DNA of 64,000 nucleotides from Gammaproteobacteria bacterium (GCA_011321815.1 DROS01000096.1:10750-74749), one strand, 5' to 3'. Positions 30,921-49,485 are shown, numbered from the stretch's first letter. Translations and numbers: made by a program. Notes: generated by a model not told the origin, from the letters alone.

Positions 30921-30968
30921 GGGCTCTGGATTTACGGAATGCAAACGAATTAATCGACAAGGCTATTC

Positions 30969-32543: not shown

Positions 32544-33424
32544 GTTCTATCGAACGTATGGTTGAAAAGCTTAAGTTGTCGACCTCCAATGGAGGTGTGC
32601 AACGTAAAGCAGTGGAACGAAAGCCTGTTGGCAAGACGCCTTCTTCTGCATCGCCCGGCAGGACAGCCAAACAACGTGAAGCAGGTTTTACCCATATCGA
32701 TATGGGTAAGCTGGAAAACTTTGGTTTTTTTGCGCCGCCTCAGGATCGTGCGAAACTGGCGGAGGAATATCGCCGAATCAAGAGACCGTTGCTGAGCAAT
32801 GCTTTCGGTAAAACGGCAGACGCTGTTGAACTGGGAAATGTGATCATGGTTGCCAGCGCCATGTCGGGTGAAGGAAAAACATTTAATACCATAAATCTGG
32901 CCCTGAGCATGGCAAACGAAATGGACATCACCGTGCTGGTGGTGGATCTTGATGTTCTTAATCCGGCGCTTACACGTTTGCTTGAGCTGGACGAAAAACT
33001 GGGGCTTACAGATGTGCTATCGGACCCTGATGTAGAACTTGCGGATGTCATCCTGTCCACTAATGTACCGAAATTAAAGATACTGCCCGCTGGGCGCAGG
33101 CACACTCAAGCAAACGAGTTGTTGGCGAGTGATCAAATGCAGCGAGTAACTCACGAATTGTCAACACGTTACCCCGACAGAATCGTTATTTTTGATGCTC
33201 CCCCCTTGTTGCTGACCAGTGAGGCGAATGTAGTTGCAGGTTTAGTGGGTCAGGTATTGCTTATTGTTGAGGCGGGAGAAACCCCCCAAAATGCGGTCAA
33301 GGAGGCGGTGGCGTTGCTTGACGAACGAAAAGTCATCGGCATTGTGCTGAATAAATACAAAGGCTCCGGTAACGGGCCACAGTACGGTTCTTATTATGCT
33401 GCGTACGGAGAGGAACAAGGTTAG
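32540..33424 (+). CDS. Protein-tyrosine autokinase (BY-kinase, EpsG-like) paired with the Wzz-like protein
   Basis: The 294-aa product has Walker A 'SAMSGEGKT', Walker A' 'VLVVDLD' and Walker B 'IVIFDAPP' motifs. It overlaps the upstream gene by ATGA. Confidence 0.8.
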   Translation: MSSIERMVEKLKLSTSNGGVQRKAVERKPVGKTPSSASPGRTAKQREAGFTHIDMGKLENFGFFAPPQDRAKLAEEYRRIKRPLLSNAFGKTADAVELGNVIMVASAMSGEGKTFNTINLALSMANEMDITVLVVDLDVLNPALTRLLELDEKLGLTDVLSDPDVELADVILSTNVPKLKILPAGRRHTQANELLASDQMQRVTHELSTRYPDRIVIFDAPPLLLTSEANVVAGLVGQVLLIVEAGETPQNAVKEAVALLDERKVIGIVLNKYKGSGNGPQYGSYYAAYGEEQG

Positions 33425-33496
33425 TGCTCTGTCCATACGATAATCACGAAACCCGCAGCGATCACATGGGTCGGGCAATAGTATTTGTTGAACCTG

Positions 33497-33646
33497 GAAT
33501 GAATCTATTGCAAAGAATCCATTTAGGCCCGTTTTTTTCGATCATTTTCGTTAAATATGCGCAATATGTTTCATCTCAAATGATCAAAAAAATGGACGCA
33601 AAATGGCTTTTTCCCGCGACGATTATTTAAGCCTGACAGGCTCCTA
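33497..33646 (+). repeat. Degenerate/truncated copy of the 167-bp MITE-like element (right inverted repeat 'ctgacaggctcctag' retained)
   Basis: An internal sequence about 75-80% identical to the copy 1 core ends in a near-terminal-repeat 'taagcctgacaggctcctag'. The left repeat is lost. Confidence 0.45.
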
Positions 33647-33692
33647 GTTCGTGATATTTCTGGCTTCGCCCCGGACAAATGATGGCTACATG

Positions 33693-35156
33693 CGATTATG
33701 TATCCAGCTTTTGGCTGCCGCCCTGCTGGTTTTGCTATCTGCCCCCGTATTTGCTGCGGAGTGGTCGGTTAAGCCCTCCTTGGAACTCAGGGAAACCTAC
33801 ACTGACAATGTTACCCTTAGCAATCCGGGCGAAGAAGACTATATCACCGAGGTTAACCCAGGGCTGGCAATACGGGCTGAGGGCCCCAGGTTGAATGCTA
33901 ATCTGGGGTATACATTGCAAAATATTTTTTATGCAAAAAACTCAAACCGAAATGCCAAATATCATCAGCTGGGAGCCAATACATCGGCAGAGCTTGTCAA
34001 GGATTTTGCTTTTCTGAACCTGAGGGCCAGTGATTCGCAGCGGGTGATTTCACCTTCCAGGGGGGGGGTGGTGGATAATCTTAATGCCGTCAACCGCACC
34101 AAAATTTCTGCCTTGGCCATTAACCCGTATGTCAAGAAACGCTTCGGAAGGAAAGCAGAAGGTTCAGCCAGCTATTCGTATGAAACTCTGGCCTACAGCG
34201 GTGGAGGAGCGTCGGATGCCAAAATTGAATCCGTAGCTGCCGGACTTCGCAGTGGACCTTCCTTTCAGCGCATGTTCTGGTCGCTGGATTATTCACAAAA
34301 AATAACAGCAAGAGCAGGCGCCAGTGATTACAGTAAGAAATCGGCCACTGGCCAGGCCAGTTATTTAGTCAATCGAAGCCTGGGCATGTTGTTCCGCGCT
34401 GGTGATGAGCGCAATGACCTTGCTTCTTCCCAAGGGCGAAATGGTTCCTATTATGCTGTTGGTGCCAGAATTATGCCGAGCCCCATACTTCAGATTGATT
34501 TGTTGACGGGGAATCGATTGAGCACGGCATCGCTTTCCTGGTCGCCGACGCCCCGAAGTGCGTTGAATCTTGTGTGGCGGGATCAAAAAGTTGGCCTGAA
34601 CACGGGCCGTGTCTGGAAAGGGACCATGTCGTTGGTGAACCGACGAATGGCCTGGAACGCAAGTTACCTTGAAGATACTACTTCGGTGCAGGGTGTGCAG
34701 AGCCTGGGGGGCGGTGGTCAACAGGGCCAGTCAAACAATTTAGCCTCCTCGGCGCTTCCCCTGTCCAACGCATTGTTTGTACGCAAACGCGGACAAACAA
34801 CTTTGGGCTATAAAACCGCCAAAAGTCTCATTAGTGTTAGCGCATACGAAGAACGCAGGTTGTTTGATACCAGCGGTAACCAAACATTACGTGGTGGTAC
34901 AGCTTCCTGGCGCTGGCATTTTGCCAGTCGTACTACCATGTTATTGCGTTTTCAGGGTTTGAACAGCGGGTATTCAGATGACTCTGGTGATCGTCGCAGT
35001 ATCAGGCTTCGCAGTGCGGATCTCAATTTTTCCCGGAAAATGGGGCGCGGGATGGATGGTAGTATCATCGCCAGCAGCAGAACCTGGGAGGGCCTGCTGG
35101 GTGGGCTAAGCCTTAGTGAAAACAGACTCAGTGTCCGTATGAAATGGAGCCTTTGA
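33693..35156 (+). CDS. PEP-CTERM-system-associated outer-membrane beta-barrel protein (EpsL-like); the track ORF starts at 33651
   Basis: The product has a signal peptide 'MRLCIQLLAAALLVLLSAPVFAAEW', an alternating amphipathic pattern and a C-terminal aromatic residue. It sits next to wza/wzz/BY-kinase as in XrtA loci. Confidence 0.6.
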   Translation, partial: RLCIQLLAAALLVLLSAPVFAAEWSVKPSLELRETYTDNVTLSNPGEEDYITEVNPGLAIRAEGPRLNANLGYTLQNIFYAKNSNRNAKYHQLGANTSAELVKDFAFLNLRASDSQRVISPSRGGVVDNLNAVNRTKISALAINPYVKKRFGRKAEGSASYSYETLAYSGGGASDAKIESVAAGLRSGPSFQRMFWSLDYSQKITARAGASDYSKKSATGQASYLVNRSLGMLFRAGDERNDLASSQGRNGSYYAVGARIMPSPILQIDLLTGNRLSTASLSWSPTPRSALNLVWRDQKVGLNTGRVWKGTMSLVNRRMAWNASYLEDTTSVQGVQSLGGGGQQGQSNNLASSALPLSNALFVRKRGQTTLGYKTAKSLISVSAYEERRLFDTSGNQTLRGGTASWRWHFASRTTMLLRFQGLNSGYSDDSGDRRSIRLRSADLNFSRKMGRGMDGSIIASSRTWEGLLGGLSLSENRLSVRMKWSL

Positions 35157-35240
35157 TTTTTGTCTCAGGCCTGTTCACATCCACCAATCCCCCGCTGACA
35201 ATAACCGATATGATAAATCTATAAAAAGGAAACCTCTGTC

Positions 35241-36365
35241 ATGAATACTTCCACGATCATGTGCGTGGTTGGCGCCCGACCCAACTTTATGAAAATTGCG
35301 CCGGTTATGCGGGCATTAAGCGCCTCTGATACCCTGCAACCCTGTCTGGTACACACAGGGCAGCATTATGACGCAGCGATGAAACATGCTTTTTTTGACC
35401 AGCTGGGTATTCCTGAGCCGGATGTGGATCTGGGGGTGGGATCGGGAACACATGCCGTACAAACAGCAGAAATCATGTTGCGCTTTGAGCCTGTGCTGGA
35501 TGAACATAAACCGGCGGCCATTCTGGTGGTGGGTGATGTCAATTCCACGATTGCCTGCTCTCTGGTAGCGGCAAAAAAAGGAATTCCTGTCATCCATGTG
35601 GAAGCGGGTCTGCGCAGCTATGACCGGGAAATGCCTGAAGAAATTAACCGGGTACTCACCGATCAAATTTCCGATTTACTTTTCATTACTGAATCGGATG
35701 CGGTTGCCAATCTCGAACGGGAAGGTATTGACAGCACCCGGGTTCATTTTGTCGGCAACGTGATGATCGATACATTACACCATCAACTGGACAGCGCCAC
35801 CTTACCGGAAAAGACTTTGGCTGATGTCACAAACAGCAAGGCATTATTGGAGAATGGTTACGCCCTGTTGACGTTGCACAGGCCATCCAATGTGGACACT
35901 CCGGATATTCTTGAGCGCCTGTTGAAAACCATGCAAACCATCAGTACTACGCTGCCCATTGTGTTCCCGGTTCATCCCCGCACCAAGGCCTGCATCGAAA
36001 AAGCCGGGTTGGGTGATCTGCTGGACAGTGCTGCAATTACCCGGCTGACCCCGCTGGGTTACAAGGAAATGCTGGGGCTGATGGCCAATGCCCGCATGGT
36101 GTTGACCGATTCCGGCGGCATTCAGGAAGAGACCACCGCGCTGGGTGTGCCTTGTATCACGCTGCGTGAAAACACAGAGCGACCCATTACCGTTGAGCAG
36201 GGAACCAATACCATTGTCGGAACAGATCCGGAAGTAATTCTGGCGGCATTCAATGAAACTGTGGAAAGCGGTGGAAAGGCCGGACAGGTGCCGGACAAGT
36301 GGGATGGTAAAACTGCTCAACGTATTATTGACGTTATCGAAAACTGGCTGGACGTTAAACGATAA
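35241..36365 (+). CDS. wecB: UDP-N-acetylglucosamine 2-epimerase (non-hydrolysing)
   Basis: The 374-aa product has '…GARPNFMKIAPV…HTGQHYD…' and a full-length Epimerase_2 fold. Confidence 0.9.
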   Translation: MNTSTIMCVVGARPNFMKIAPVMRALSASDTLQPCLVHTGQHYDAAMKHAFFDQLGIPEPDVDLGVGSGTHAVQTAEIMLRFEPVLDEHKPAAILVVGDVNSTIACSLVAAKKGIPVIHVEAGLRSYDREMPEEINRVLTDQISDLLFITESDAVANLEREGIDSTRVHFVGNVMIDTLHHQLDSATLPEKTLADVTNSKALLENGYALLTLHRPSNVDTPDILERLLKTMQTISTTLPIVFPVHPRTKACIEKAGLGDLLDSAAITRLTPLGYKEMLGLMANARMVLTDSGGIQEETTALGVPCITLRENTERPITVEQGTNTIVGTDPEVILAAFNETVESGGKAGQVPDKWDGKTAQRIIDVIENWLDVKR

Positions 36366-36392
36366 TTACCATTCATCATCAGAGACGATCCA

Positions 36393-37265
36393 GTGAATCA
36401 GCATACAATTACCAACGCAATGACAGTGGATGTGGAGGATTATTTTCAAGTCTCCGCATTTGAAAAAATTATTCCCCGTAGTGAATGGGACAATATCAAT
36501 GCACGAGTGGAAAAAAATACCGAAAGCGTGCTTGATATGTTTGATGAAGCCGGCGTGAAAGGCACTTTTTTTATGCTGGGCTGGGTGGCAGAGCGTTATC
36601 CGGGGTTAGTGAGCCGTATTGTTGCCGATGGACACGAACTGGCCAGTCATGGTTATTCGCACATACGTGTGGTCAATCAGCAACCACAGGCGTTTTTTGA
36701 CGATATTGTGCGTACCAAGAAGCTACTTGAAGATATGTCCGGTCAGCAAGTATGTGGTTATCGTGCTGCGAGTTATTCCATTGGCGCCAGAAATCTGTGG
36801 GCGTTGGATAAACTGAAAGAAGCGGGTTATATCTACAGTTCCAGTATTTACCCCATCAAACATGATTTATACGGCATGCCGGAGGCTCCGCGTTTTTCGT
36901 TTCGACCTCGTGGCCATGACGGCATCCTCGAAGTTCCCGTGACCACTGTGGAAGTGCTGAATAAAAAGCTTCCCTGTGGTGGCGGTGGTTACTTCCGGCT
37001 TTACCCCTATGCCGTTTCGCGCATGGCCATGCGCAGGGTGAACCGGCATGATGGTCAACCCGGCGTTTTTTATTTTCATCCCTGGGAAATTGATCCGGGA
37101 CAGCCGCGTCAAAAAGATATTAGTGCCAAGACGCGGTTTCGGCATTATTTGAATCTTGGGCGCATGGAAGGGCGCTTAAAAAGATTGCTCAGGGATTTTC
37201 AGTGGGACCGGATGGATAAAGTGTTTCTCGAACAGAATGCTCATTCCGGTAATTTAAAAAAATAA
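36393..37265 (+). CDS. Polysaccharide deacetylase, XrtA/PEP-CTERM-locus subfamily
   Basis: The 290-aa product has 'TVDVEDYFQV…GTFFMLGWVAERYP…LASHGYSH' (NodB-like motifs). Confidence 0.8.
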   Translation: MNQHTITNAMTVDVEDYFQVSAFEKIIPRSEWDNINARVEKNTESVLDMFDEAGVKGTFFMLGWVAERYPGLVSRIVADGHELASHGYSHIRVVNQQPQAFFDDIVRTKKLLEDMSGQQVCGYRAASYSIGARNLWALDKLKEAGYIYSSSIYPIKHDLYGMPEAPRFSFRPRGHDGILEVPVTTVEVLNKKLPCGGGGYFRLYPYAVSRMAMRRVNRHDGQPGVFYFHPWEIDPGQPRQKDISAKTRFRHYLNLGRMEGRLKRLLRDFQWDRMDKVFLEQNAHSGNLKK

Positions 37266-37296
37266 AATCAGATATTGCACAGGAGCAGAACGGGAC

Positions 37297-38364
37297 GTGT
37301 CAGAAACATCAATAGAAATAAAAGAACTGGATAGTCAATCCATGCAGCGCTGGGATGCCTTTGTCGAGGCATGTCCCGAAGCCACATTTTTTCATCGCGC
37401 AGGCTGGAAAAAAGCCATTGAAGCAGGCATGGGGCATCGTGCCCATTTTTTGTATGCAGAGCGCAATGGCGCCATTGAAGGTGTATTGCCATTGGGACAT
37501 GTTAAAAGTTTTTTGTTTGGCAATGCGCTGATGTCTGCACCTTTCTGTGTTTATGGTGGGGTTGCCGCCCATTCGGATGCAGCACGGGTCGCGTTGCATA
37601 AAGCCGCAGAGGAGTTGGCGCGCCGTCTTGGAGTGGATTACCTCGAAATGCGCAATGCACAGTTTGCCCGGATTGAGCCACCGGAATCGCAGTTGCCCAA
37701 TGAAGACTGGCTGGAAAAAGAACTGTATGTAACCTTTCGCAAAGAAATCGACGCCGATGCAGAAAAAAACCTGCTTTCCATTCCCCGCAAACAGCGGGCT
37801 GTTGTGCGCAAAGGGATCAAGGCAGGACTGGTCAGTGAGATAGATACGGACATCCAGCGCTTTTATGACGCGTATGCGCAAAGCGTCAGAAATCTGGGAA
37901 CACCGGTGTTTCCCAAAAAGTTTTTCTCCGTGCTGCGCGATGTATTTGGTGAACATTGTGAAGTGTTAACGGTGGTCAAGGACGGGCGGCTTATCAGTAG
38001 TGTGATGAGTTTTTATTTTCGGGATGAAGTTCTGCCTTACTACGGAGGTGGGACCAGCGAAGCGCGTGCCGTAAAAGGCAATGATTTTATGTATTGGGAA
38101 CTTATGCGTCGGGCGGGTGAGCGCGGTATTCGTGTTTTTGATTACGGCCGCAGCAAAATGGGTACAGGGTCTTACAGCTTCAAGAAAAACTGGGGATTTG
38201 AACCTGAGCCTCTGAAATACGAATACCTGCTGGTAAAAGCGAGCGAGATTCCGGATGTGAATCCACTGAATCCCAAGTACCAGTTGTTTATCAATGCCTG
38301 GAAGCGGTTGCCTTTGCCTGTTTCAAAATTTGTTGGACCGTTTATTTCCCGCAATCTGGGTTAG
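37297..38364 (+). CDS. FemAB-family (GNAT-fold) protein, PEP-CTERM-system-associated; GTG start
   Basis: The 355-aa product follows the deacetylase gene as in described XrtA loci, with '…FFHRAGWKKAIE…' and FemAB-like length. Confidence 0.75.
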   Translation: MSETSIEIKELDSQSMQRWDAFVEACPEATFFHRAGWKKAIEAGMGHRAHFLYAERNGAIEGVLPLGHVKSFLFGNALMSAPFCVYGGVAAHSDAARVALHKAAEELARRLGVDYLEMRNAQFARIEPPESQLPNEDWLEKELYVTFRKEIDADAEKNLLSIPRKQRAVVRKGIKAGLVSEIDTDIQRFYDAYAQSVRNLGTPVFPKKFFSVLRDVFGEHCEVLTVVKDGRLISSVMSFYFRDEVLPYYGGGTSEARAVKGNDFMYWELMRRAGERGIRVFDYGRSKMGTGSYSFKKNWGFEPEPLKYEYLLVKASEIPDVNPLNPKYQLFINAWKRLPLPVSKFVGPFISRNLG

Positions 38365-38469
38365 GTGTTAATAGTTGTTTTGACAGTCCAACCGGTGTTT
38401 GTTTTTTTATCCAATGCCGCAGGGAAAAACAGGAAAATTTTCCCGATAAACGGATATCAGTGAATTCAC

Positions 38470-40926
38470 TTAACCCTTATACGGCCCGGGCCAGCCTTCC
38501 AGCTCAAAGAGCGGCATGACGGCTCGCTCGGGCTGTTCCAGTTCCAGCGCCAACAATGCAGGACCGAGAGCCCCCCAGTAGAGATTCAAACTGTGTTCAT
38601 CCCAGGCAAAAGATTCGACAGTGGAATTAAAGGCGAAGCGTGCCAGTTGTTGGGCCCGGGCTAACCATACTTGATCGCCGGTGTGACGATAGACATGCAG
38701 CAAGGCAAAGGCACGCCCACTGAGGCCACAGCAAAGACGTGGGTGGCGGTCGGCATGCTCCCAGGCAAACCAAGCCGTCTGGATAGCCAGTTCCAGGTAA
38801 CGGGGACTCTGGATCAGTTCGTGAGCCAGACACCACAAATAAAGATACCCAGCACTGCCACTGCACCAGCCAGGGGCATGAGCAGGTGTCTCATTTTGTT
38901 GCCCCATATGCTGAACAGTACCAACCCATGATATACCTCGCCCGTGGAGAACCGCCTTTTCAGCCAGTTGCTCAAGATGTTTTACAAGCGTAACGGAAGG
39001 GGGTGTTTGCAGCAGTTTGTGCGCCAGTAGTTGAGCATAGAGCATACCGGCCCAACCGTGTGCGATACCCAGATGGGGCGTGGTTTGATCATTGCCGACG
39101 TCACCCAGCCCGGCAATGCGTGTGGCGGTATGCCGGGACGTTTCCCGCAGGAACTGTTCCAATGGTTTGACGGACAAGCGTGACGACCAACGCAATACAT
39201 CCAATAATATTGCAGCGCCTACTATCGGGCCGCTATGGCCGAAGGCAAATTCGTTTTGGCTTTTTCCGGCTTGTGCAGCACTCAGAAACTCTTCCACCTG
39301 TTGCGCGGTTGAGGCCATATCACCTCGTGCGTGACTGATCAAAGCGTGCACGCAGTGCAGACCACACCGCCCATGGTGAAGAGAAACATGACGGTAGTTG
39401 ATCTTTTTGTCGCTTACGGCGGGCAGCTCAAACCCCTGACTATCGTCAATTTGTGCAAGTGCCTGGCGGGACCAGAGGTCGGCACCCACAATCAGTTGCG
39501 GAGAATTGCGTATCTGTGCGGCACGGTAGAGAAACCATGCCAACCCGGCTGCACCAGACTGAATGGACAGCGTTGGTGCGGTAGTGAACAGTTCCGCTAA
39601 TGGGCGTGGAGCATCCACCGTGCGTTCCAGAATTGCATCGACCAGGGACAGCATCTTTGCGGCTGGGCGCACCTCGTCAACCTGATTGCGTTGTGTGGGG
39701 GGCTGTGCACGGCGAAAAGCCTCGCTGAACAGTTTAAGCGAAGGAAAGCGGGCCTGCGCCTTTTTGGCCATAGCGCGCTGTAACACGGATTCTATGTCAG
39801 GCCAGCTTTCAAACCCGTGTCGGGCAAAGGGTAAAGGGGGACTTTCAACCACTTCTTTGTACAGTATCCCCGCCTCGGGTACCCCGGCGATGGGGTAGGC
39901 GCCACAGATCAGATAATATACCAATGCGGCCACAGCATACTGTTCACCCGCGTAGCTTGCGGGTGGCGGCGGTTCTCCGTTCAGTAATGCACTTGCCAAT
40001 TCCGGTTCCATAAACCAGGCTAAACCGGCGCGCCGATTATGATCCGTTGCTGTCCCGCTTGTTAGCAAACGCGATAACCCGAAATCGAGCAATGTAATAT
40101 TGTTGTCGGCATCCACCAACAGGTTTTTGGGATGCACATCGGCATGGATGACACCGTGACCATGAAGTTGTGCGTAGGCATCGAGCAGACGGCAACAAAG
40201 CTGGTGTATCCGGGTGCGCCAGGAGGTTGAGGTGGCGAGACGGTGTTCCCAGAAAGGCAGGTTGATTGGCACGCCGGGACACCAGGAGGTAACCAGAAAA
40301 GGGCGTTCACGATATTGCCCCTGTTCGGCCAATTGCGGACTGCCCACCCCATGCAAATGTGTCAGAATAGCAGCCTCATGTTCCAGTGCCCGCGATACTG
40401 ATGAAGCAGTATCGGGACGTGCGATTTTTAACGCAAACAATTGCCCGTTTTTCCCCTGCACTTGATAGACTTCCACGTCCTGTAGCACTTGAATCAAGCG
40501 GCATACCTCATACCCGGCAAGCATTTGCCCATTGGCAAATGACGCATGAATACTTTCCGTTATGGGCGAATCGGCGGGAACCAGAAACTGGGCATTGGAA
40601 AAACGTATTAACGCAGGGAAGACCTGCGCCAGTGTCTCTTCCGGAACAAGGTTATGTTGACGGCTGTAACGTGCAATGGCTTCGGCAAGGGGGGACGGCG
40701 TGCGAAACGTCTGTAGCAAGATGGCAGTGTCTTTATCGACAATGCGCGAAAAAGAGCGCATGCCGGGGCGTGTAACGGCATAATCGTCATCGTTGCAGTC
40801 GAGCATCGCCCGAACATGTTCCGCCAGTTCCTGAACGGGAAACAACAAGACATCAGGCGGTAAAACATACGGTTTCTGCAAAAGTTTGCGGCGTGCTTCG
40901 TCAATCATTTGTGATCCCGTTTTCAT
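38470..40926 (-). CDS. Ser/Thr protein kinase fused to a LanC-like (lanthionine synthetase C-like) cyclase domain, with an unassigned roughly 135-aa N-terminal domain
   Basis: The kinase motifs are 'FALKIARPD' (catalytic Lys), 'HGVIHADVHPKNLLV' (catalytic loop) and 'LLDFGLSR' (DFG). The C-terminal LanC motifs are 'GAAGLAWFLY', 'GIAHGWAGM' and 'WCSGSAGY…CCGLSGRAF'. Confidence 0.8.
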   Translation of the reverse strand: MKTGSQMIDEARRKLLQKPYVLPPDVLLFPVQELAEHVRAMLDCNDDDYAVTRPGMRSFSRIVDKDTAILLQTFRTPSPLAEAIARYSRQHNLVPEETLAQVFPALIRFSNAQFLVPADSPITESIHASFANGQMLAGYEVCRLIQVLQDVEVYQVQGKNGQLFALKIARPDTASSVSRALEHEAAILTHLHGVGSPQLAEQGQYRERPFLVTSWCPGVPINLPFWEHRLATSTSWRTRIHQLCCRLLDAYAQLHGHGVIHADVHPKNLLVDADNNITLLDFGLSRLLTSGTATDHNRRAGLAWFMEPELASALLNGEPPPPASYAGEQYAVAALVYYLICGAYPIAGVPEAGILYKEVVESPPLPFARHGFESWPDIESVLQRAMAKKAQARFPSLKLFSEAFRRAQPPTQRNQVDEVRPAAKMLSLVDAILERTVDAPRPLAELFTTAPTLSIQSGAAGLAWFLYRAAQIRNSPQLIVGADLWSRQALAQIDDSQGFELPAVSDKKINYRHVSLHHGRCGLHCVHALISHARGDMASTAQQVEEFLSAAQAGKSQNEFAFGHSGPIVGAAILLDVLRWSSRLSVKPLEQFLRETSRHTATRIAGLGDVGNDQTTPHLGIAHGWAGMLYAQLLAHKLLQTPPSVTLVKHLEQLAEKAVLHGRGISWVGTVQHMGQQNETPAHAPGWCSGSAGYLYLWCLAHELIQSPRYLELAIQTAWFAWEHADRHPRLCCGLSGRAFALLHVYRHTGDQVWLARAQQLARFAFNSTVESFAWDEHSLNLYWGALGPALLALELEQPERAVMPLFELEGWPGPYKG

Positions 40927-42097
40927 GCCACAACGCAGTGGTGGGCATCCAGTTTTCTACCTGTACGCCATCCAATGCCAGACGCAACAAGGCGAAATCC
41001 CATGGCGCCGGATGGTCATCACTGTCTGCTATTGTTGATTTGGCGCGTAACAGGCTGCGTGCCAGGTGGTTGGTTATCCATAAACGCCAGCTTTCCACAT
41101 CACGCCAGCCAGGAATCAGCTCGCTGTGCGGAGGGTCTATTCCCCAGGACAACAAACCATCGGTGTCCAGTGCTGCTGTAAATGGTACGCCATGGGATGG
41201 GCAGTCCTGCAATATCTTTTTCAGGTGTTTCGCCACCCGCGCCAGGGTGCGGTAATTTTCAAAATACGCCACCAGTTTGTCGGGCCGTAATATTCCAAAC
41301 AGATCCTGTCCCAGCTTGAATGACGGCACACCCATTTCAACAAAACAGCGCGCAATTTTGGGTAACACCTCGCTCAATACCCCGGGGGTCGGACTAATGT
41401 AGAGTTTGCAAGTCAAAGGTTCACTACGATCAAATGCCCCCTGCTGATGGTGCCATGCCAGCCACCCTGGCACGTTATGAAACACAAAGTGCTCATCAAG
41501 CAAACGATGTACTGCGCCACCAGGCTGAAGCCCCAAATGATTCTGTATCGCACGTTGGTCCGAAAGACGGTGAGCCCATGCAGGTGTTACTGGCATGCGG
41601 TGATAGCGATAGAGCCAGCGTGATAACGCCTTAGGGTCATCTATGGGAAGAGTCTGAGCCGCCTGCAAGGCGGCGTGTGAACAGGTTGTCAAAACATCGG
41701 CAGGTTCAGGAATGTTGGGTGTGGCGGCGAGAAGTGCTTTGCAGGCTGCCGGACCACTGAAAAAACGGCCCTCTTCTTCGATTTCCAGAATACCGTCCAG
41801 CACCATGCCCGCAATCCCTGCCTTATTCTGCAGGATGTCTGCGGGTAACGTCGCAGGCTGTCCGAGGCGTTGCAATAACGCAGCACTATTATTATCAACC
41901 GCCAGAATACCCAACGCGGGCTCCTGGTGTGGGACTAACACACCGTACTGACCGGCATCCGCAGCGAGTTCACGAAAGGGGGCCGCAGACACTGGAGGCA
42001 GCTGTTCATAGCCAACTAACCGGAATGCCGGGCTGGCGCGAAACAGGCGGCCTTCCAGGGGTTGAAGCTGAAGCCAGCTATGTTCGCCTGTTAACAT
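40901..42097 (-). CDS. Hypothetical 398-aa protein, middle gene of the kinase-LanC operon
   Basis: This ORF is translationally coupled on both sides: it overlaps the downstream kinase-LanC gene by 26 nt and the upstream 168-aa gene by 7 nt. I can assign no motif by eye. Confidence 0.5.
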   Translation of the reverse strand: MLTGEHSWLQLQPLEGRLFRASPAFRLVGYEQLPPVSAAPFRELAADAGQYGVLVPHQEPALGILAVDNNSAALLQRLGQPATLPADILQNKAGIAGMVLDGILEIEEEGRFFSGPAACKALLAATPNIPEPADVLTTCSHAALQAAQTLPIDDPKALSRWLYRYHRMPVTPAWAHRLSDQRAIQNHLGLQPGGAVHRLLDEHFVFHNVPGWLAWHHQQGAFDRSEPLTCKLYISPTPGVLSEVLPKIARCFVEMGVPSFKLGQDLFGILRPDKLVAYFENYRTLARVAKHLKKILQDCPSHGVPFTAALDTDGLLSWGIDPPHSELIPGWRDVESWRLWITNHLARSLLRAKSTIADSDDHPAPWDFALLRLALDGVQVENWMPTTALWHENGITND

Positions 42098-42597
42098 TCA
42101 CCTTTGGAGGAACGCAATTCTTCCAGTGCCCCTTCAAACATGGGTATCAGTTCCTGTGCATCTGTCTTTGCACGGCGTGCGGCAACCGCTTCGACGCCTT
42201 CAATTCTCGCCACGGCTTCGTTGAGCAGGCCTTTGACATATACAAGGTCATCCAATTGAAAGCCGCCTATGCTGGAGGCAAAGGGAGAAATGTTTTCGTT
42301 AGCCTCACAGGTCGCCATATCCTGGGAACAAAGTGCCAGCAATCCGCCGCCGACTGCCGCGCGCCCGATGTCTGTTGCCACGCGCTCAAGCTGGGCCGGT
42401 TCAAGACGGTTGATCTCTCCTTTATAACTATCCAGAAATTGCAGTTTATAAACATCCCGTGCCACGGCAATCACTGGTGTAAGCGGTGTGGGAAACTCCG
42501 AGGTGTCTGAATCAGGTCCTGGATAAGCGACACTTCCTCCACCCGTTTTGAGTGGCATAAGATTGACCATTAAATCTTTCACTTTATATGTACGCAT
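42091..42597 (-). CDS. Hypothetical 168-aa protein, first gene of the kinase-LanC operon (candidate substrate or accessory protein)
   Basis: It has a good Shine-Dalgarno sequence (GGAGAAAAGCC-ATG). A Ser/Thr/Pro-rich patch 'PGPDSDTSEFPTPLTP' is present and the C-terminus ends '…LRSSKGEC'. Confidence 0.45.
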   Translation of the reverse strand: MRTYKVKDLMVNLMPLKTGGGSVAYPGPDSDTSEFPTPLTPVIAVARDVYKLQFLDSYKGEINRLEPAQLERVATDIGRAAVGGGLLALCSQDMATCEANENISPFASSIGGFQLDDLVYVKGLLNEAVARIEGVEAVAARRAKTDAQELIPMFEGALEELRSSKGEC

Positions 42598-43342
42598 GGC
42601 TTTTCTCCTTTGAGAGACGAAATACGCACCGGCTCCTTGATATTGGATGGTGGTAAAAGTTAATGACTAAATCATTCGTTACATTACCAGTAGCGACGCT
42701 GCCTTCCTTCCAGATTGACGCTTTACGAATGGCAAGCGGAGAGACGGAAAAAAACGGAGCCCTCACTGCAACTATAGACTATATATACCCGTAGCGATTG
42801 AGATTCAGGCCTGATTGCACGCCCTGTTTCCGCCATGGCCGCGTTGTTGTCCTTGTCATAGAATAACGATTACGTGTCATGTCGCCTCGCCATGCAGAAA
42901 ATATGACGCACACTTAAACCGAAACCCCAAACGCCACGAGTATATGGCGCTGTGTCATCAATGTGATAATGACCGGAAATTTCATAAATGTGATTTTTAG
43001 GGTGTAAAAAAACGTGACCGTCCGGTTAAGGAAATCCGGCGATTCTGATGAAATCACGCCTAACAACAAACGTCGTGCCTTGATGACATCAATGCCTGTG
43101 CCAGCAGCAGGTCTTACCCAACCGGGGTGTTCTTTATGTTTAAAAAATGCCAAATTTAAAGGAACAACCTGGGGCGCTTGTCCGTCTACACGGCGTAAGA
43201 GTCTCGGTAGTTACCTCATCAGATAAGAATTTGAGTACCGTGTCGCAAATCAATCGACTGTCAGTCAATATGCCGGGCGCAGGGACGATGATATTTCCCG
43301 GAAGCTGTGTGCTCCCCCGTTTAGTAAGCAGAGGAATGTGTA

Positions 43343-46300
43343 ATGCCATGGATTAAGCCCGTTTTCCCTTCCACTATATGCTGTCCCCGTCGTTTTGTAT
43401 CGGCGTTTTTCTTTTTCGCGGTGTTACTGATTTCAAACCATGCCTTCGCTGTAATTGGTGCGGCGCCAAACACCACCATTCAGAATCTCCCCGCCAACAC
43501 CTGGTACGAGGTTCCGAACAGCGAGATGCGTCAAGTGGAAGCCAAGGGCGCGGATTATCCCGGCATCTGGGGTAACCACCCGGATGATCCCACGCCAAGG
43601 AAGAGCAACTTTCCAAGTGGTCAGGGGGTTTTTCTGTGGAGTGGTGCAGTGTTTGACGACTATCGCAATCGCCTGGTGTTATGGGGTGGTGGGCACAACT
43701 CATACTACGGTAACGAGCTTTATGCCTTTGATCTCACCTCCTTAAACTGGGAACGGGTTACCAACCCCTCGCCGCCCACTTATGATGATATTTGTGTTGC
43801 TGTTTTGTCTGATGGCAACCCCAATAGCCGCCACACTTATTACAATCTGGCCTATATCCCCACCACAGACAAATTTTTTTCCACGCCGGCAGGGACCACA
43901 TCCTGCGAGGCTTCCGGATTGGATTTCAACACCTGGAGCTTTGATTTCGATAGTAAAGACTGGCTCAATCTTGCCCCCGCCACCGAACTTAACGGTAACG
44001 GCAAGGCAGTACAGCCCCCGGGTTGGGCGCCTACGGCGGCGGCTTACAATCCACTGGATAACAAGGTGTACTCTGTTGGCCCCGAGGGGCTGTTTGCCTA
44101 CGATGTGGTTGCCAATCGTTGGGATAAACTGAATTCCTCCGGATTGGGGGGAGACCGCGGTGTGGTGGTGGACGAGAAGCGTGAGCTGCTAGTCGTGGTG
44201 GGGCGTGGTGAGGTGGTGGTCTACGATTTGGCCAATCAGAATTATACCCCCCAATTCTGGGATACCGTGGGTGATGAGGACTATAACCTTAATAATAATT
44301 TCCGCCCGGGTGTGAATTACGATCCGGTGGCGGACCGCATCGTAGTGTGGGATGGGGGAGCCGTGCGTGCGCTCAATATGGATACCCGTCGCTGGGATGA
44401 TCTTGCGGTGGCGCCCCAGGTGCGCCATTTTACGGGCACTTACGGTCGCTTTCGCTATAGCCGACGGGAAAACGCCTATGTGTTGGTCAATGATGCGACA
44501 GAGAATGTACTGATCTACAAGCTGGCAGACCCTGCTGCCTTGCGGGTGGTTCTGGACCCTGTTGATATTGCCGTGGATCAGGGGCAAACCGCAACATTCA
44601 GTGTGTTCGCAATTGGTGATAGTGAGCTTAGCTATCAGTGGCGCAAAAACGGAGGAGTCATTGACGGTGCCACACAGGCAAGTTACACACTCACGGCCTC
44701 CGATATGGCTGACAATGATGCGGAGTTTGATGTCGAAATCACCAATAATGGCAGCAGCCTGATCAGCGCTTCCGCCAGGCTTACGATTGTTCAGGACATT
44801 GATGCCCCGACAGTGGTTTCTGTACTGCCCCTTGGGGCTGACACTGTCCAGGTGGTGTTCAGCGAGCCGGTGGAAACAGCGTCGGCACAAAATGCCAGTC
44901 GTTACAGCCTCGCGCCTTCCGTCACAGTCAATAGTGCTGTGCTGGCGGCCAACACTCGGGTGGTGTTGCTTGATGTCAGTGGCCTCAGTGAGGGCACTGA
45001 ATACACCCTGATCATTGACGACGGTATCAGCGACCGCGCTATTGTGCCCAACGTCATGACAGAAATGACCAATGTCAATTTTGTCTATCGCGCCAATGAA
45101 GGGTTCGAGGGTGGTGATGCCGCAGGTTTTGAGCCCCAAACGCCATCGCGCTGGACGGTGGTACAGGACGGTGGTGATTACGCCTACAGTCTTAATACTT
45201 CAAATTTTGACAGCCCTGGCAATGGCTTGTTGGGTGAATACAGTCTGTTGCCGGGGATCTATGGTGACGTGGTGTTTAGCGTTAATGCCCGGCTGGGTGA
45301 CGAGGTGGCCAGTAATAATTTCGCTGATATGGCGCTGTTGTTTGGTTATCAGGACGCCAATAACTATTACTATCTGCTTCTTAATAATGCAATGTCTGCC
45401 ACGCAATTGTTCAAAGTGGAATCGGGTCGCCGTAGCGAACTGGCCACGGCCACGACGGACTGGTTGAATGACAACCTTTATCACGCCATTGACATTGTGC
45501 GTAGTGGTGATCAAATCCGGGTCACTTTTGATGGCAACATGCTGCTGAGCGCCACGGATGCCACGTTTGCGATGGGTCGTCTGGGCGTTGGCAGCTTCAA
45601 TGATTCCGCCTTTTTTGATGACGTTCGCGTACGTGCGGTACCTGCTGGTGGTGCCACCAATAGCGCGCCCACGGCTGCCAGTGCCAGTATTACAACCAAT
45701 GAAAACACACCGAGCGGAGGTGTATCCGCGCAGGTAACAGACCCGGATGATGGCGCTGATCATGTTATCAGCATTGTTTTACAGCCTTCGAACGGTACTG
45801 CACAGGTGATTAACAACAAGCTGGTTTACACGCCAGGCACAGGATTTGTCGGCAATGACAGCTTCCAGTTCAGCGCCACGGACTCGGGCGGGCTGTCTGT
45901 CACCGGTATTGCCAGCGTTACGGTGTTGGCCGCGGGGGGTGGAAACAATGCACCCACCGCCGCCAGTGCCAGCATCACTACCTACGAAGATACATCGAGC
46001 GAAGGTGTGTCCGCGCAGGTAACAGACCCGGATGATGGCGCCGATCATGTTATCAGCATTGTTTTACAGCCTTCGAACGGCACTGCACAGGTGATTAACA
46101 ACAAGCTGGTTTACACGCCAGATAGCGGTTTTGTCGGTGATGACAACTTCCAGTTCAGTGCCACGGATTCGGGCGGGCTGTCTGTCACCGGTACCGCCAG
46201 CGTCACAGTGTTGGCAGAAGAGCCGTCTGACAATGGCGGCAGTTCCACGGTGGGTGGTGGCAGCGGTGGTGGCGGTGGCAGTTTTGGCGTATTGCTGCTA

Positions 46301-46402
46301 TTGGCCCTGTTGTTCATGAAATACAGTTTTGTCTTTCTTTCTGTTCCGGCACATCGTCAAAATAATCTTGATGCTGTACTGAGGGTTGATCAGTTGTCCT
46401 GA
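43343..46402 (+). CDS. Large secreted multi-domain surface protein (Kelch/beta-propeller-like region, Ig-like domains, concanavalin/LamG-like domain, two tandem cadherin/VCBS-like repeats, Gly-rich linker and a C-terminal hydrophobic anchor)
   Basis: The 1019-aa product has a signal peptide (…FFFAVLLISNHAFAV) and an Ig-like segment '…FSVFAIGDSELSYQWRKNGGVIDGATQASYTLTASD…'. Two 95-aa repeats are present. The C-terminus is 'GGGSGGGGGSFGVLLLLALLFMKY…'. Confidence 0.75.
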   Translation: MPWIKPVFPSTICCPRRFVSAFFFFAVLLISNHAFAVIGAAPNTTIQNLPANTWYEVPNSEMRQVEAKGADYPGIWGNHPDDPTPRKSNFPSGQGVFLWSGAVFDDYRNRLVLWGGGHNSYYGNELYAFDLTSLNWERVTNPSPPTYDDICVAVLSDGNPNSRHTYYNLAYIPTTDKFFSTPAGTTSCEASGLDFNTWSFDFDSKDWLNLAPATELNGNGKAVQPPGWAPTAAAYNPLDNKVYSVGPEGLFAYDVVANRWDKLNSSGLGGDRGVVVDEKRELLVVVGRGEVVVYDLANQNYTPQFWDTVGDEDYNLNNNFRPGVNYDPVADRIVVWDGGAVRALNMDTRRWDDLAVAPQVRHFTGTYGRFRYSRRENAYVLVNDATENVLIYKLADPAALRVVLDPVDIAVDQGQTATFSVFAIGDSELSYQWRKNGGVIDGATQASYTLTASDMADNDAEFDVEITNNGSSLISASARLTIVQDIDAPTVVSVLPLGADTVQVVFSEPVETASAQNASRYSLAPSVTVNSAVLAANTRVVLLDVSGLSEGTEYTLIIDDGISDRAIVPNVMTEMTNVNFVYRANEGFEGGDAAGFEPQTPSRWTVVQDGGDYAYSLNTSNFDSPGNGLLGEYSLLPGIYGDVVFSVNARLGDEVASNNFADMALLFGYQDANNYYYLLLNNAMSATQLFKVESGRRSELATATTDWLNDNLYHAIDIVRSGDQIRVTFDGNMLLSATDATFAMGRLGVGSFNDSAFFDDVRVRAVPAGGATNSAPTAASASITTNENTPSGGVSAQVTDPDDGADHVISIVLQPSNGTAQVINNKLVYTPGTGFVGNDSFQFSATDSGGLSVTGIASVTVLAAGGGNNAPTAASASITTYEDTSSEGVSAQVTDPDDGADHVISIVLQPSNGTAQVINNKLVYTPDSGFVGDDNFQFSATDSGGLSVTGTASVTVLAEEPSDNGGSSTVGGGSGGGGGSFGVLLLLALLFMKYSFVFLSVPAHRQNNLDAVLRVDQLS
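45656..46225 (+). repeat. Two tandem 285-bp near-identical repeats inside the surface-protein gene
   Basis: The anchor 'gccagtgccag' occurs at 45677 and at 45962 (period 285 bp). The encoded repeats '…APTAASASITT…VSAQVTDPDDGADHVISIVLQPSNGTAQVINNKLVYTP…FQFSATDSGGLSVTG…' are more than 90% identical. Confidence 0.8.
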
Positions 46403-46770: not shown

Positions 46771-48234
46771 ATGATCGGGATGCTTAAAAACACCGTCAAA
46801 CAGGCATTTCTTCGCCGGATTGCGGCCTCTGATCGCAAGGCTTTTGCGCAGCGGGGGCTCGATTTGCATGGTCTTTCACCGTCTCACTGGAATTTGAATA
46901 TCAACGAATCCGGTCACCTGGAGGCGCAGGGTTGCGACCTGGTTTCCCTCGCCAGGCAATATGGCGCACCGCTGTATGTGGTGGATAGGGAGAGGCTGGC
47001 CCGAAATTATCGCGCCTTTTATGATGCGTTTGCCGATCATTATCCCAAGGTTGTGATTGGCACCTCCTACAAAACCAACCCGTTACCGCGGGTAATCAGC
47101 GCGTTGCATGAATGTGGCGCCTGCGCGGAAGTCATTTCCCATTTTGAGCTTTGGCTGGCCCTGAAACTGGGTGTGCCCGGGTCTTCCATTATCGTCAACG
47201 GTCCGGGCAAAACCCGCGAAGGGTTGGAGCTGGCTATTTCCCATCAGGCCAAGATCATCAACATTGATGGCCTGCACGAAATCGAGTGGATTGCGGACTT
47301 GATGAAAAAATATGATCACCGGCAACGGGTTGGTGTGCGGGTGGTGACCTCGGTGGGATGGTCGGCGCAATTCGGGCTGGGCATTGGCAATGGTGATGCG
47401 TTGAAGGCGTTTCAACAATTGCGTGCACGCGAGCAGATTGAACCCTGTGGCATACATGTGCACCTTGGTACCGGGATTCGCAATATCGAAACCTATCTGA
47501 AGGCGATAAAAGAAGTGCTGGAGTTTGCCCGCCTGTTGAAGCGTGATCTCGACATTGATATCCGTTATTTTGATTTTGGCGGTGGCTTTGGTGTGCCCAC
47601 CGTGCGTGAATTTTCGGAGATTGATGTAATGTTGCGGGCCAATAATATGCCCGTACGGCCACTGGACACGGAGGCCTGTCCTGATATCGCAGAATACGGA
47701 AAGGCCATCAGCGCACTGATGAGCCAGTATTACCCGCTCGCTGATCCTGCGGCGCCCACCCTGATATTTGAACCGGGGCGCGCCATTACCAGCAGTGCGC
47801 AGATGCTGTTGCTGGAAGTATTGGCCACCAAAGCGGGCGCCAATGGCGTGACCAATATCATTGCCAACGGCGGGAAAAATATCGCCATGCCAACGGGGTA
47901 CGAGTATCACGAGTTGTTCGTGGCCTCAAAAATGAATGCGCCGCGTAGCGGTCGTTGCAGCGTCTTTGGCCCCTTGTGCCATCCTGGCGATATACTTTTC
48001 AAGTTAAAAAAACTGCCCGATGTCTCCGCAGGCGATATTCTCGCCATCATGGATGCCGGCGCCTATTTTGTGCCGAACCAGATGAATTTTTCCAACCCGA
48101 GACCCCCGGCGGTCATGTTACAAGAGGGCAAGGCGGAGTTGATTCGTGAGCGGGAAAGTTTCGAAAACATCATTTCCCTGGATCAATTACAAGCTGAAAC
48201 CGGTCGCTGCGATTCTGCGGCGGTCAATCAATGA
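46771..48234 (+). CDS. PLP-dependent decarboxylase (Orn/DAP/Arg decarboxylase fold), exosortase A system-associated
   Basis: The 487-aa product has an alanine racemase-like TIM barrel plus a C-terminal beta domain ('…GPLCHPGD…' region). It lies immediately upstream of the GT and xrtA genes. Confidence 0.8.
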   Translation: MIGMLKNTVKQAFLRRIAASDRKAFAQRGLDLHGLSPSHWNLNINESGHLEAQGCDLVSLARQYGAPLYVVDRERLARNYRAFYDAFADHYPKVVIGTSYKTNPLPRVISALHECGACAEVISHFELWLALKLGVPGSSIIVNGPGKTREGLELAISHQAKIINIDGLHEIEWIADLMKKYDHRQRVGVRVVTSVGWSAQFGLGIGNGDALKAFQQLRAREQIEPCGIHVHLGTGIRNIETYLKAIKEVLEFARLLKRDLDIDIRYFDFGGGFGVPTVREFSEIDVMLRANNMPVRPLDTEACPDIAEYGKAISALMSQYYPLADPAAPTLIFEPGRAITSSAQMLLLEVLATKAGANGVTNIIANGGKNIAMPTGYEYHELFVASKMNAPRSGRCSVFGPLCHPGDILFKLKKLPDVSAGDILAIMDAGAYFVPNQMNFSNPRPPAVMLQEGKAELIRERESFENIISLDQLQAETGRCDSAAVNQ

Positions 48235-48252
48235 TCTGCCGGGGCCAGTGAC

Positions 48253-49485
48253 GTGGAAGACCTGCTGTTCCTTACTCACCGTATTCCCTATCCGCCCAAT
48301 AAAGGCGATAAAATTCGCTCGTTTAACCTGCTCAAACAGTTGGTTAAGGATTACCGGGTGCATCTCGGCACATTTATTGATGATCCCGTTGACTGGCAAT
48401 ACGTTGCTGAGCTGGACAGGCTTTGTGAGCAGACCTGCTATGTGGGGCTGAATCCACTTGCTGCCAAACTGCGCAGCACCCGAGGGTTTCTTACGGGCGA
48501 GGCGCTGACGCTGCCTTATTACCGGAATGCGCGCATGCAGAAATGGGTGGATGGCACTCTGCATGAGCATTCCATAAACAGAGTGCTGATTTTTTCTTCA
48601 GCTATGTGTCAATACCTGTTGCATGATAGCGCCAGCCATACTCGCCGCGTGGTTGATTTTGTCGATATTGATTCCGACAAATGGAAACAATACAGCGAAT
48701 CATTAAAGTGGCCCATGAGCTGGGTATACAAGCGCGAAAGCAAAACCCTGCTGGAATTTGAACGCCGTGTGGCCAGACAATTTGATGCATCGATTTTTGT
48801 ATCCCAGGCCGAGTCGGCTATGTTTAAAAAACTGGCGCCGGAAAGCGCCGCCCGGGTGGGTTATATAGAAAATGGTGTTGATGCCGACTATTTTTCTCAA
48901 AGCCAAAACCTGCAAAATCCCTATGCACCGGAGGAAAAGGTACTGGTGTTTACCGGAGCAATGGATTACTGGGCCAATGCCGATGCCGTTGTGTGGTTTG
49001 CGCAAGCAGTGTTTCCGGACATTCTTAAGCAGGTGCCTGAGGCACGGTTTTATATTGTGGGCGGCCGCCCCGGCGAAGCGGTAAAAAAGCTGGATGCGGA
49101 AGCCGGGGTTCATGTAACAGGTTCGGTAAAGGAGATTCGTCCGTATCTGGCGTATGCGCAGGCTGCTGTTGCGCCGTTAAGAATTGCACGAGGTGTGCAA
49201 AACAAGGTGCTGGAGGCAATGGCCATGGAAAAGCCAGTGCTGGCAACCTCGGCGGCATTGGACGGCATTGTGGATTGCGCGGCCTTGGAAACGCTCAGAG
49301 CCGATGATCCCGGTGTAATGGCAAGCAAGGCGGTTGAATTATTGACCACGGATATTGGTGAAGCGCTGGGTAAGGCGGGCCGGACTTGTATTACTGCCCA
49401 TTACGACTGGGCCCGTAATCTCAACCGTATAGAACAGTTGCTGGAAAATACTGATGGCACCGGTCCGGGGATGAAGAACATATGA
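48253..49485 (+). CDS. Glycosyltransferase family 4 (GT1 fold), PEP-CTERM/XrtA system-associated 'stp1' type
   Basis: The N-terminus is 'LLFLTHRIPYPPNKGDKIR' and the product has a C-terminal GT1 domain. It overlaps the xrtA start. Confidence 0.8.
   Translation: MEDLLFLTHRIPYPPNKGDKIRSFNLLKQLVKDYRVHLGTFIDDPVDWQYVAELDRLCEQTCYVGLNPLAAKLRSTRGFLTGEALTLPYYRNARMQKWVDGTLHEHSINRVLIFSSAMCQYLLHDSASHTRRVVDFVDIDSDKWKQYSESLKWPMSWVYKRESKTLLEFERRVARQFDASIFVSQAESAMFKKLAPESAARVGYIENGVDADYFSQSQNLQNPYAPEEKVLVFTGAMDYWANADAVVWFAQAVFPDILKQVPEARFYIVGGRPGEAVKKLDAEAGVHVTGSVKEIRPYLAYAQAAVAPLRIARGVQNKVLEAMAMEKPVLATSAALDGIVDCAALETLRADDPGVMASKAVELLTTDIGEALGKAGRTCITAHYDWARNLNRIEQLLENTDGTGPGMKNI

Follow-up and report, generated by a model that had tools for sequence, protein, structure and literature searches.

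A candidate split lanthionine synthetase with a stand-alone HopA1-type lyase and a kinase-LanC partner

Described synthetases and the three-gene cassette

Lanthipeptide synthetase classes are told apart by how dehydration and cyclisation are split among proteins. Class IV enzymes of the LanL type (VenL, SgbL) carry an OspF-like lyase fused at the N-terminus of a kinase and a zinc-ligand LanC cyclase. In the class III LanKC enzymes (ThurKC, CuvL, SalKC, PneKC) the lyase, a RamC_N domain, is fused as well and the cyclase is without zinc ligands; class III leaders are reported to bind without a RiPP recognition element (RRE) domain (PMC10604976). In class V (LanK, LanY and LanX), LanY (CaoY, LxmY; TvaD, TsaD and ThoD in the thioamitides) is a separate HopA1-fold lyase acting after a separate APH-type kinase, LanK, which forms a heterodimer with it, and cyclisation is carried out by the kinase-fold LanX without LanC. 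Here we describe a three-gene cassette on the minus strand of a 64,000-nucleotide (nt) stretch of DNA from a Gammaproteobacteria bacterium (GCA_011321815.1 DROS01000096.1:10750-74749), the whole of which we call the window. Its middle gene encodes a 398-amino-acid (aa) protein, the target of this analysis, which very probably serves as the phosphate-eliminating lyase in a lanthionine synthetase that is split over two proteins.

The genes of the cassette are:

42091..42597, minus strand: precursor-like substrate gene, 168 aa, with a leader motif, a Cys-poor centre and a C-terminal helical tail
40901..42097, minus strand: target gene, candidate phospho-Ser/Thr lyase, 398 aa, ATG start, with an RRE-like N-terminal domain and a HopA1/LanY-type lyase core
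38470..40926, minus strand: fusion gene of an RRE-like domain, a Ser/Thr kinase and a LanC cyclase, 818 aa (or 812 aa), from Pfam and NCBIfam

Analysis of the open reading frames (ORFs) of the window places all three in the same direction, from the 168-aa ORF through the 398-aa target to the kinase-LanC gene. The stop codon of the 168-aa ORF and the start of the target overlap by 7 nt (ATGTTAA), and the stop of the target overlaps the kinase-LanC start by 8 nt (ATGATTGA) for the 812-aa product, which is the choice of public gene callers, or by 26 nt for the 818-aa version. An earlier sequence-only reading of this DNA had described the 398-aa gene as the middle of a tightly coupled operon, and both of its ends indeed overlap neighbouring genes.

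Judging from sequence comparisons and structural models, the cassette appears to mix class IV with class V lanthipeptide machinery, joining a class-IV-type kinase and zinc cyclase to a class-V-type stand-alone lyase, with recognition domains on both. LanL is the closest counterpart of the kinase-LanC protein in its kinase and zinc-ligand LanC domains and shares the same predicted phosphorylate-eliminate-cyclise chemistry. However, the place of the fused LanL lyase is here taken by an RRE-like domain, the lyase is encoded by a separate gene, and the zinc site is C-C-C ('CCG') instead of C-C-H. The system is not class IV because the partner has no fused lyase and scores below the LanL model cut-off, and it is not class III because zinc ligands are present. 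LanKC enzymes nevertheless resemble the target, as seen in structural matches and in the 5 of 36 family members that touch RamC_N, but in them the lyase is fused and the cyclase is without the zinc-ligand Cys residues found here.

The target resembles LanY in being a separate HopA1-fold polypeptide that is predicted to act after a separate kinase, and in keeping the Lys-Arg-Tyr spacing of 10/7 (CaoY K219-R229-Y236, target K261-R271-Y278). In contrast to LanY, whose partners are an APH-type LanK and a LanC-free cyclase, the target is paired with a Ser/Thr kinase of eukaryotic type that is joined to a zinc LanC; it also has an extra N-terminal RRE-like domain, most members of its family escape the HopA1 Pfam model, and its precursors are 60-470 aa long with a helical C-terminal tail. 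A class V assignment fails on two points: the kinase partner is no APH-type LanK, and a LanC cyclase takes the place of the LanX route.

We found no description of a Pkinase-LanC protein with a separate HopA1-like lyase, of such RRE-like domains or of such precursors in the full-text literature searched, subscription-only papers lying outside that search. Eyles et al. (2021) reported LanC-like proteins close to, or fused with, 20% of HopA1-like proteins (PMC8153245), but those pairs involve APH-type phosphotransferases and short peptides, unlike the present cassette (PMC8153245). The family described here appears to be uncovered by that study, because its searchable supplementary tables hold no Paenibacillus or Acidobacteria entries (PMC8153245). 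The label 'class VI' was considered as a match and rejected, since it denotes streptococcal LanKC variants.

Fold, conserved residues and partners of the 398-aa protein

The AlphaFold2 model of the target, built on 36 family sequences, is confident (mean predicted local distance difference test score, pLDDT, 89.5; predicted template modelling score 0.89). Searched with Foldseek, it gave 22 matches in the PDB at E<=1e-3, every one of them a HopA1 or phospho-Ser/Thr lyase-type fold. The best match was HopA1 (4rsx, E 3.6e-8, TM(target) 0.57; 4rsw, E 7.9e-7), accompanied by LxmY, chain B of the lexapeptide dehydratase LxmKY (9dk1-3, E 1e-6 to 7e-6; 9dk3_B, 1.1e-6), by the class III lyase domains of ThurKC, CuvL and SalKC (E 3e-5 to 1e-3; PneKC, E ~2e-2), and by VirA, SpvC and OspF (3bo6, 2z8o, 3i0u, 2p1w and 4h43; E 1.8e-4 to 1e-3, probability ~1.0). 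The first unrelated fold, an RNA-binding domain, follows at E 0.018. The comparison with OspF, SpvC and HopA1 that the sequence-only reading had proposed is therefore positive. Family members point the same way at the sequence level: relative P0006, 46% identical to the target, matches Pfam HopA1 (PF17914) over residues 225-318 with 25.9 bits, above the gathering score of 22.7, and 7 of the 36 members touch Pfam HopA1 (E<=1), with 5 touching the class III lyase domain RamC_N.

The genomic context agrees with this assignment. Of 80 loci, each from a different species and together spanning many phyla, 78 have a kinase-LanC gene immediately downstream of the lyase gene and in the same orientation, the two exceptions being one contig end and one Crocosphaera locus. 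The expectation that the gene should accompany kinase-LanC homologues in other genomes is thus borne out, and the proposal that the missing phospho-Ser/Thr lyase is supplied in trans gains support from both the fold matches and this adjacency.

The predicted catalytic region and its parts are:

40904..41500, minus strand: lyase core, residues ~200-398 of the target, from invariant motifs and the HopA1 matches of relatives
41393..41407, minus strand: strand K231-L-Y233-I-S235, aligned on SpvC K104-F-H106-I-S; Lys kept, acid His replaced by Tyr
41315..41317, minus strand: K261, predicted general base, corresponding to SpvC K136 and CaoY K219 by hhalign and spacing
41264..41287, minus strand: R271-P-D273-K274-x-x-x-Y278; R271 and Y278 are the predicted equivalents of SpvC R148 and Y158 (CaoY R229 and Y236), from spacing and the SpvC sequence
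41084..41137, minus strand: D321 to S336-W-R338, predicted equivalents of SpvC D201 and S-Y-R213, from motif comparison

Conservation of these residues was counted over 261 family members. K231, Y233, K261, R271, D273, S336 and R338 are present in 261/261, and D321 (260/261), S235 and Y278 (259/261 each) and K274 (258/261) are nearly invariant. Profile alignment of the family with SpvC, whose sequence was taken from pSLT, places K231-L-Y-I-S on K104-F-H-I-S and F-K261-L-G on W-K136-V-T; the score is weak (hhalign E 0.031), and the alignment was retained only since the aligned positions fall on expected motifs. The spacing K231-K261-R271-Y278 is 30/10/7 in the target and 32/10/7 for R187-K219-R229-Y236 in CaoY (PMC9486802), a HopA1-like class V lyase in which K219A abolishes elimination activity (PMC9486802); the spacings that follow K136 in SpvC are 12 and 10. 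At the position of the carbonyl-activating Arg187 of CaoY, the family has Lys231 in 261/261, unlike CaoY and as in SpvC (K104) and LanL. With OspF, SpvC, VirA and HopAI1 the target shares the fold and counterparts of K104, K136, R148, Y158, D201 and R213. It differs in the exchange of His106 for Tyr, in sequence similarity that is limited to a 40-residue stretch and in being twice the size; moreover, those effectors act on host mitogen-activated protein (MAP) kinase, whereas the predicted substrate of the target is a co-encoded precursor. We infer the roles of individual lyase residues from alignment and spacing.

The 818-aa partner matches only Pkinase (153-361) and LANC_like (453-808) in Pfam, with E 2.2e-17 for Pkinase (PF00069), a weaker E 1.2e-8 for APH and E 9.3e-30 for LANC_like. 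The NCBIfam LanL model NF038150 aligns from model position 191 only (E 3.8e-48, 164.5 bits against a cut-off of 650), and the class III LanKC model NF038151 scores 98.5 against a cut-off of 575. No lyase domain was found in any of the 120 best kinase-LanC homologues, all of which are 710-855 aa long and consist of Pkinase and LANC_like. Fusions of lyase and kinase-LanC of the 'Rosetta stone' type were also absent among the best 150 lyase-family representatives and the best 120 kinase-LanC homologues. Since the lyase of LanL is located where the kinase-LanC protein has its first ~110 residues, we considered whether these are a truncated or degenerate lyase; this was rejected, as Foldseek returned RREs and zero lyase matches. 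The view that the kinase-LanC fusion is without a lyase domain is therefore upheld by Pfam, by the start of the LanL alignment, by the 120 homologues and by the RRE-like N-terminus.

Among 68 full-length members, the kinase residues K167, H261-x-D263, N268 and D281-F-G283 are invariant, and the cyclase residues H623, W687-C688 and C732-C733-G734 are kept in 66-67. Because the kinase and zinc-cyclase residues are conserved, both catalytic domains of the partner look functional. The LanC domain lies at 38503-39570, with C732-C733-G734 at ~38725-38733; this 'CCG' motif, found in 66 of the 68, points to a three-Cys zinc site, C-C-C instead of C-C-H. Such a three-Cys CCG cyclase site is a feature of the highly promiscuous ProcM-type class II enzymes. 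PADLOC assigned the kinase-LanC protein only to generic defence kinases (PD-T4-6, mad6).

Recognition domains appear at the N-termini of both enzymes:

40591..40926, minus strand: RRE-like domain, residues 1-~112 of kinase-LanC, from AlphaFold2 and Foldseek
41723..42061, minus strand: N-terminal beta-beta-alpha-beta-beta-alpha-alpha domain, residues ~13-125 of the target, from hhalign to the kinase-LanC N-terminus

The AlphaFold2 model of the kinase-LanC N-terminus (pLDDT 89.6) gave a Foldseek list headed by TigE, PqqD (5sxy, TM(target) 0.67), MibB, ThcOx, MccB and leader-bound TbiB1 (TM(target) 0.74), with further RRE-type matches to TbtB, TglHI and MadB; the E-values are modest, from 6e-3 to 0.1. 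These matches agree with the winged-helix-like RRE fold, in which helices accompany a three-stranded sheet. Family profiles of kinase-LanC residues 14-86 and target residues 13-90 align with a probability of 94% and E 1.3e-7, compared with E 0.36 for a control alignment of the kinase-LanC N-terminal profile with the C-terminal half of the target, and the AlphaFold2 models show an identical order of secondary-structure elements in the kinase-LanC N-terminus and the N-terminal third of the target. By this profile alignment and the matching element order, the two enzymes share a homologous domain of recognition type. In the 398-aa protein, the RRE assignment is by homology to the kinase-LanC N-terminal domain only.

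The third component is a candidate substrate. A strict regular expression picked out a gene of precursor architecture upstream of the lyase gene in at least 54 of 85 loci, and most loci have one or two upstream ORFs of 60-470 aa with a common architecture. The N-terminal motif M-x-F-[KR]-V-[KR]-[DE]-L-M-[IV] is found across phyla. The centre is variable and often very rich in Cys and Ser/Thr (CTxxCT runs, PTxC repeats; up to 59 Cys), and the C-terminal helical tail is of the type L-K-x-Q-L-x-x-A-L...P-Q-T-x-x-E-V-x-x-L-E-x-K-L-x-x-A-L-x-E-L. A co-encoded substrate rich in Cys, Ser and Thr is what a lanthionine synthetase needs. The precursor proteins, in the window and at the other loci, match no Pfam or NCBIfam family, and of 80 loci searched by tblastn with the 168-aa protein as query, just one gave a homologue; members of the precursor family were picked out by their motif and architecture, not by sequence similarity. 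The 168-aa protein of the window (MRTYKVKDLMVNL...) is the sole ORF there with this architecture, and two of its segments were noted:

42559..42588, minus strand: Y4-K-V-K-D-L-M-V-N-L13, the conserved N-terminal motif and candidate leader strand for the RRE-like domains, with RRE binding predicted
42307..42330, minus strand: C90-S91-Q-D-M-A-T96-C97, candidate (methyl)lanthionine site, a conserved cluster of Cys and Ser/Thr in the window precursor subfamily

In an alignment of this subfamily K7, D8, L9, M10 and N12 are invariant. The nearest relatives of the 168-aa protein share L-C-[ST]-x-D-M-x-T-C-x-A-N...I-S-P, in which C97 is invariant and C90 is present in 4 of 5.

Precursors elsewhere vary widely. 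In a Polyangiaceae locus (L052, 4572-5981), the precursor has 469 aa with 59 Cys, 97 Ser/Thr and ~40 tandem repeats of the PT[LA]C type; its complete processing would produce tens of methyllanthionine rings. Three loci (L001, L009 and L069) have two tandem precursor genes with an identical N-terminal motif and different cores, and four Thermoanaerobaculia loci (L010, L070, L072 and L074) have short precursors of 66-102 aa with C-P-x-P-S or C-T-P-S-P-P repeats.

Taken together, the system is very probably made up of a recognition domain joined to a lyase and a recognition domain joined to a kinase and a zinc cyclase, predicted to install thioether cross-links in the protein encoded upstream. 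In the mechanism that we infer, including residue roles, leader binding, order of events and chemistry, the precursor (168 aa here) would present its N-terminal F/Y-x-V-K-D-L-M-V motif, to which the RRE-like domains of both enzymes would bind; on the simplest reading, each of them docks on this conserved strand motif. The kinase domain of the 818-aa protein would then phosphorylate Ser/Thr in the precursor centre, and the 398-aa protein would beta-eliminate the phosphate to leave dehydroalanine or dehydrobutyrine. In this step K261 would take the alpha-proton, K231 would polarise the carbonyl, and R271, R338 and Y278 would hold the phosphate, with Y233 occupying the position of the SpvC acid His. 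Finally, the zinc LanC domain with its 'CCG' three-Cys site would add Cys thiols to form (methyl)lanthionine.

Alternative functions and implications

Several observations weigh against a lyase acting in a lanthionine synthetase. The target itself has zero Pfam-A or NCBIfam matches, even at E<=1, so that its earlier description as a protein with no recognisable motif is accurate at the sequence level, and a search of PDB sequences with the family profile gave nothing credible (GGDEF, E 0.033, and similar). The residue alignment with SpvC is weak when taken alone (hhalign E 0.031, probability 1.6%), the K104/H106/K136 set is incomplete, with the invariant Tyr233 at the position of the acid His106, and HopA1 itself is without demonstrated lyase activity (PMC8153245). 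The 168-aa precursor holds only 3 Cys, because of which the product of the window cassette may carry mostly dehydro residues and one or two rings at most. Neither a protease nor an exporter gene was found in the window operon.

A rival reading is a non-catalytic adaptor, which would bind the leader, hand it over to the kinase-LanC protein and keep the latter stable. Elimination would then occur at another site, such as the active site of the kinase, as happens in class II LanM. The homology of the N-terminal domain of the target to the RRE-like domain and the replacement of the acid His106 by Tyr are compatible with such a role, which Eyles et al. raised for the HopA1-like TsaD (PMC8153245), and CaoK is insoluble without CaoY (PMC9486802). 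However, the residues that are absolutely conserved in the 261 members are not confined to structural sites but occupy catalytic and phosphate-binding positions, catalysis by the homologous CaoY is documented through K219A (PMC9486802), and a pure adaptor would be redundant because the kinase-LanC protein has its own RRE-like domain. We therefore consider an adaptor unlikely, and a lyase with a recognition domain of its own is preferred. The same evidence divides an earlier suggestion of an effector or chaperone-like role: the invariant lyase positions disfavour it, and 'chaperone-like' holds in part, in that the N-terminal third is of a peptide-recognition type.

A HopA1-like effector or toxin, or a regulatory lyase acting on other phosphoproteins such as a kinase activation loop, in the manner of OspF and SpvC on host MAP kinases, would be another reading. 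Its appeal lies in the best structural match being the type III effector HopA1 and in the targeting of kinase activation loops by OspF-family lyases (PMC9486802). Against this, the family occurs mostly in free-living bacteria of soil, sediment and vents, for example Acidobacteriota and Chloroflexota, at nearly every locus the lyase gene is accompanied by genes for a kinase-LanC protein and a Cys/Ser/Thr-rich precursor, translation of the genes is coupled, and PADLOC gives no match; we regard this role as very improbable. Least credible of all is a chance neighbour in the operon with some unrelated enzyme activity, for example that of a nucleotidyltransferase or a housekeeping protein. The target has zero sequence-level annotation, and nucleotidyltransferases had been named in the sequence-only reading as a comparison to make. 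Yet no significant homology of either kind emerged in Foldseek: the sole nucleotidyltransferase match, a TUTase (5i49), has E 0.41 and probability 0.05, well behind the first unrelated fold, and coincidental placement is unlikely because kinase-LanC adjoins in 78 of 80 loci.

Preferring the lyase assignment, we see about an even chance that the cassette represents an unnamed lanthionine synthetase class. In such a class a separate lyase and a kinase-cyclase, each with its own RRE, would process precursors of 60-470 aa (<=59 Cys, PTxC/CTxxCT repeats, coiled-coil-like tail) into heavily thioether-stapled proteins and not small secreted peptides, in hundreds of species of Acidobacteriota, Chloroflexota, Gemmatimonadota, Bacillota, Pseudomonadota, Myxococcota and Cyanobacteria. 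It is the long and, in many genomes, extremely Cys/Thr-rich precursors that make such stapled products conceivable. If true, the cassette would offer a tractable two-enzyme platform for installing many lanthionines, and it would add another HopA1-fold lyase, one that keeps the SpvC-type Lys. At present the enzymes of the cassette are annotated only as 'hypothetical protein' and 'LanC family protein'. Because the lyase escapes the HopA1 Pfam model and the annotation is generic, domain-based genome mining likely misses or misclassifies the cassette.

Distribution and genomic surroundings

A word-indexed search returned upwards of 358 homologues, ~400 aa in length and with few exceptions annotated as hypothetical. 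With a HMMER profile of the 398-aa family, 1,590 clusters matched at E<=1e-3, of which 1,116 matched at E<=1e-30, in a set of 1.84 billion cluster representatives clustered at 50% identity, and all of the best 150 lyase-family representatives are stand-alone proteins of 325-507 aa. A scan with one genome per species found relatives in 364 reference species, mostly Acidobacteriota, and also Chloroflexota, Gemmatimonadota, Bacillus, Rhodocyclaceae, Polyangia and Cyanobacteria. Given these 1,590 clusters and 364 species, the 398-aa ORF is judged to be a real gene and no chance reading frame. Its composition (His 4.3%, Trp 3.0%, Pro 8.3%) agrees with the richness in these residues that had been remarked by eye, and PADLOC gave no match for it. 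Copies of the lyase family are plasmid-borne in Paenibacillus peoriae, Bacillus paramycoides and Cupriavidus oxalaticus, and a 96%-identical copy lies in an identical gene context in GCA_027058335.1. The window itself corresponds to a contig from a hydrothermal-vent metagenome.

In the Crocosphaera exception (Crocosphaera sp. XPORK-15E, locus L068), the lyase homologue at 6001-7152 is not directly followed by a kinase-LanC gene; ~1 kb upstream of it is a precursor-like ORF, and the opposite strand carries a LanC-like fragment at the end of the locus. This may be a rearranged or degenerate cassette. At locus L089, a downstream ORF that is also 398 aa long was considered as a second lyase copy and rejected as an unrelated protein.

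Two candidate expression signals flank the cassette:

42939..42967, minus strand: sigma-70-like promoter match, ~340 nt upstream of the precursor gene, a weak match in a consensus scan
38430..38445, minus strand: terminator-like hairpin and T-run, 25 nt past the kinase-LanC stop codon, a suggestive match in a consensus scan

In this consensus scan, promoter matches in the cassette region were no commoner than in shuffled controls.

According to Pfam labels, the cassette sits on the opposite strand within a polysaccharide locus of the exosortase/PEP-CTERM type. This locus occupies 27110-38364 and 46771-54403 of the window on the plus strand and is interrupted by the cassette, also in GCA_027058335.1. 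It encodes a tetratricopeptide-repeat lipoprotein, export and chain-length proteins, a UDP-N-acetylglucosamine 2-epimerase, a polysaccharide deacetylase, a FemAB-like protein, a pyridoxal-phosphate decarboxylase, glycosyltransferases, an exosortase-like membrane protein and an asparagine synthase. Divergent from the cassette, at 43343-46402 on the plus strand, lies a gene for a 1019-aa protein with Kelch/beta-propeller and Big_9/cadherin-like matches; it has two nearly identical repeats of ~100 aa and a Gly-rich hydrophobic C-terminal segment that is maybe a sorting signal. In other genomes the surroundings of the cassette are unrelated, sometimes adjoining a MacB-type exporter, and because they differ, the polysaccharide context is probably incidental and the three-gene cassette the conserved unit.

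Some of these other surroundings are distinctive. In an Anaerolinea metagenome-assembled genome (locus L086, 15878-19388), a membrane-fusion protein and a MacB-type ABC exporter are encoded ~2.3 kb downstream of kinase-LanC, with an opposite-strand gene in between; this is a possible export route, without a counterpart in the window. The closest non-identical relative (locus L088, 47% identity, from a farmland metagenome) has at its flanks (2426-2725 / 7300-8397) a TIR_2-domain gene and a convergent radical SAM/SPASM gene. In the four Thermoanaerobaculia loci with short precursors, a conserved protein of 1160-1180 aa precedes the cassette (~2000-5700) and, by reading of its sequence, appears to contain two Ser/Thr kinase domains and a TolB-like beta-propeller.

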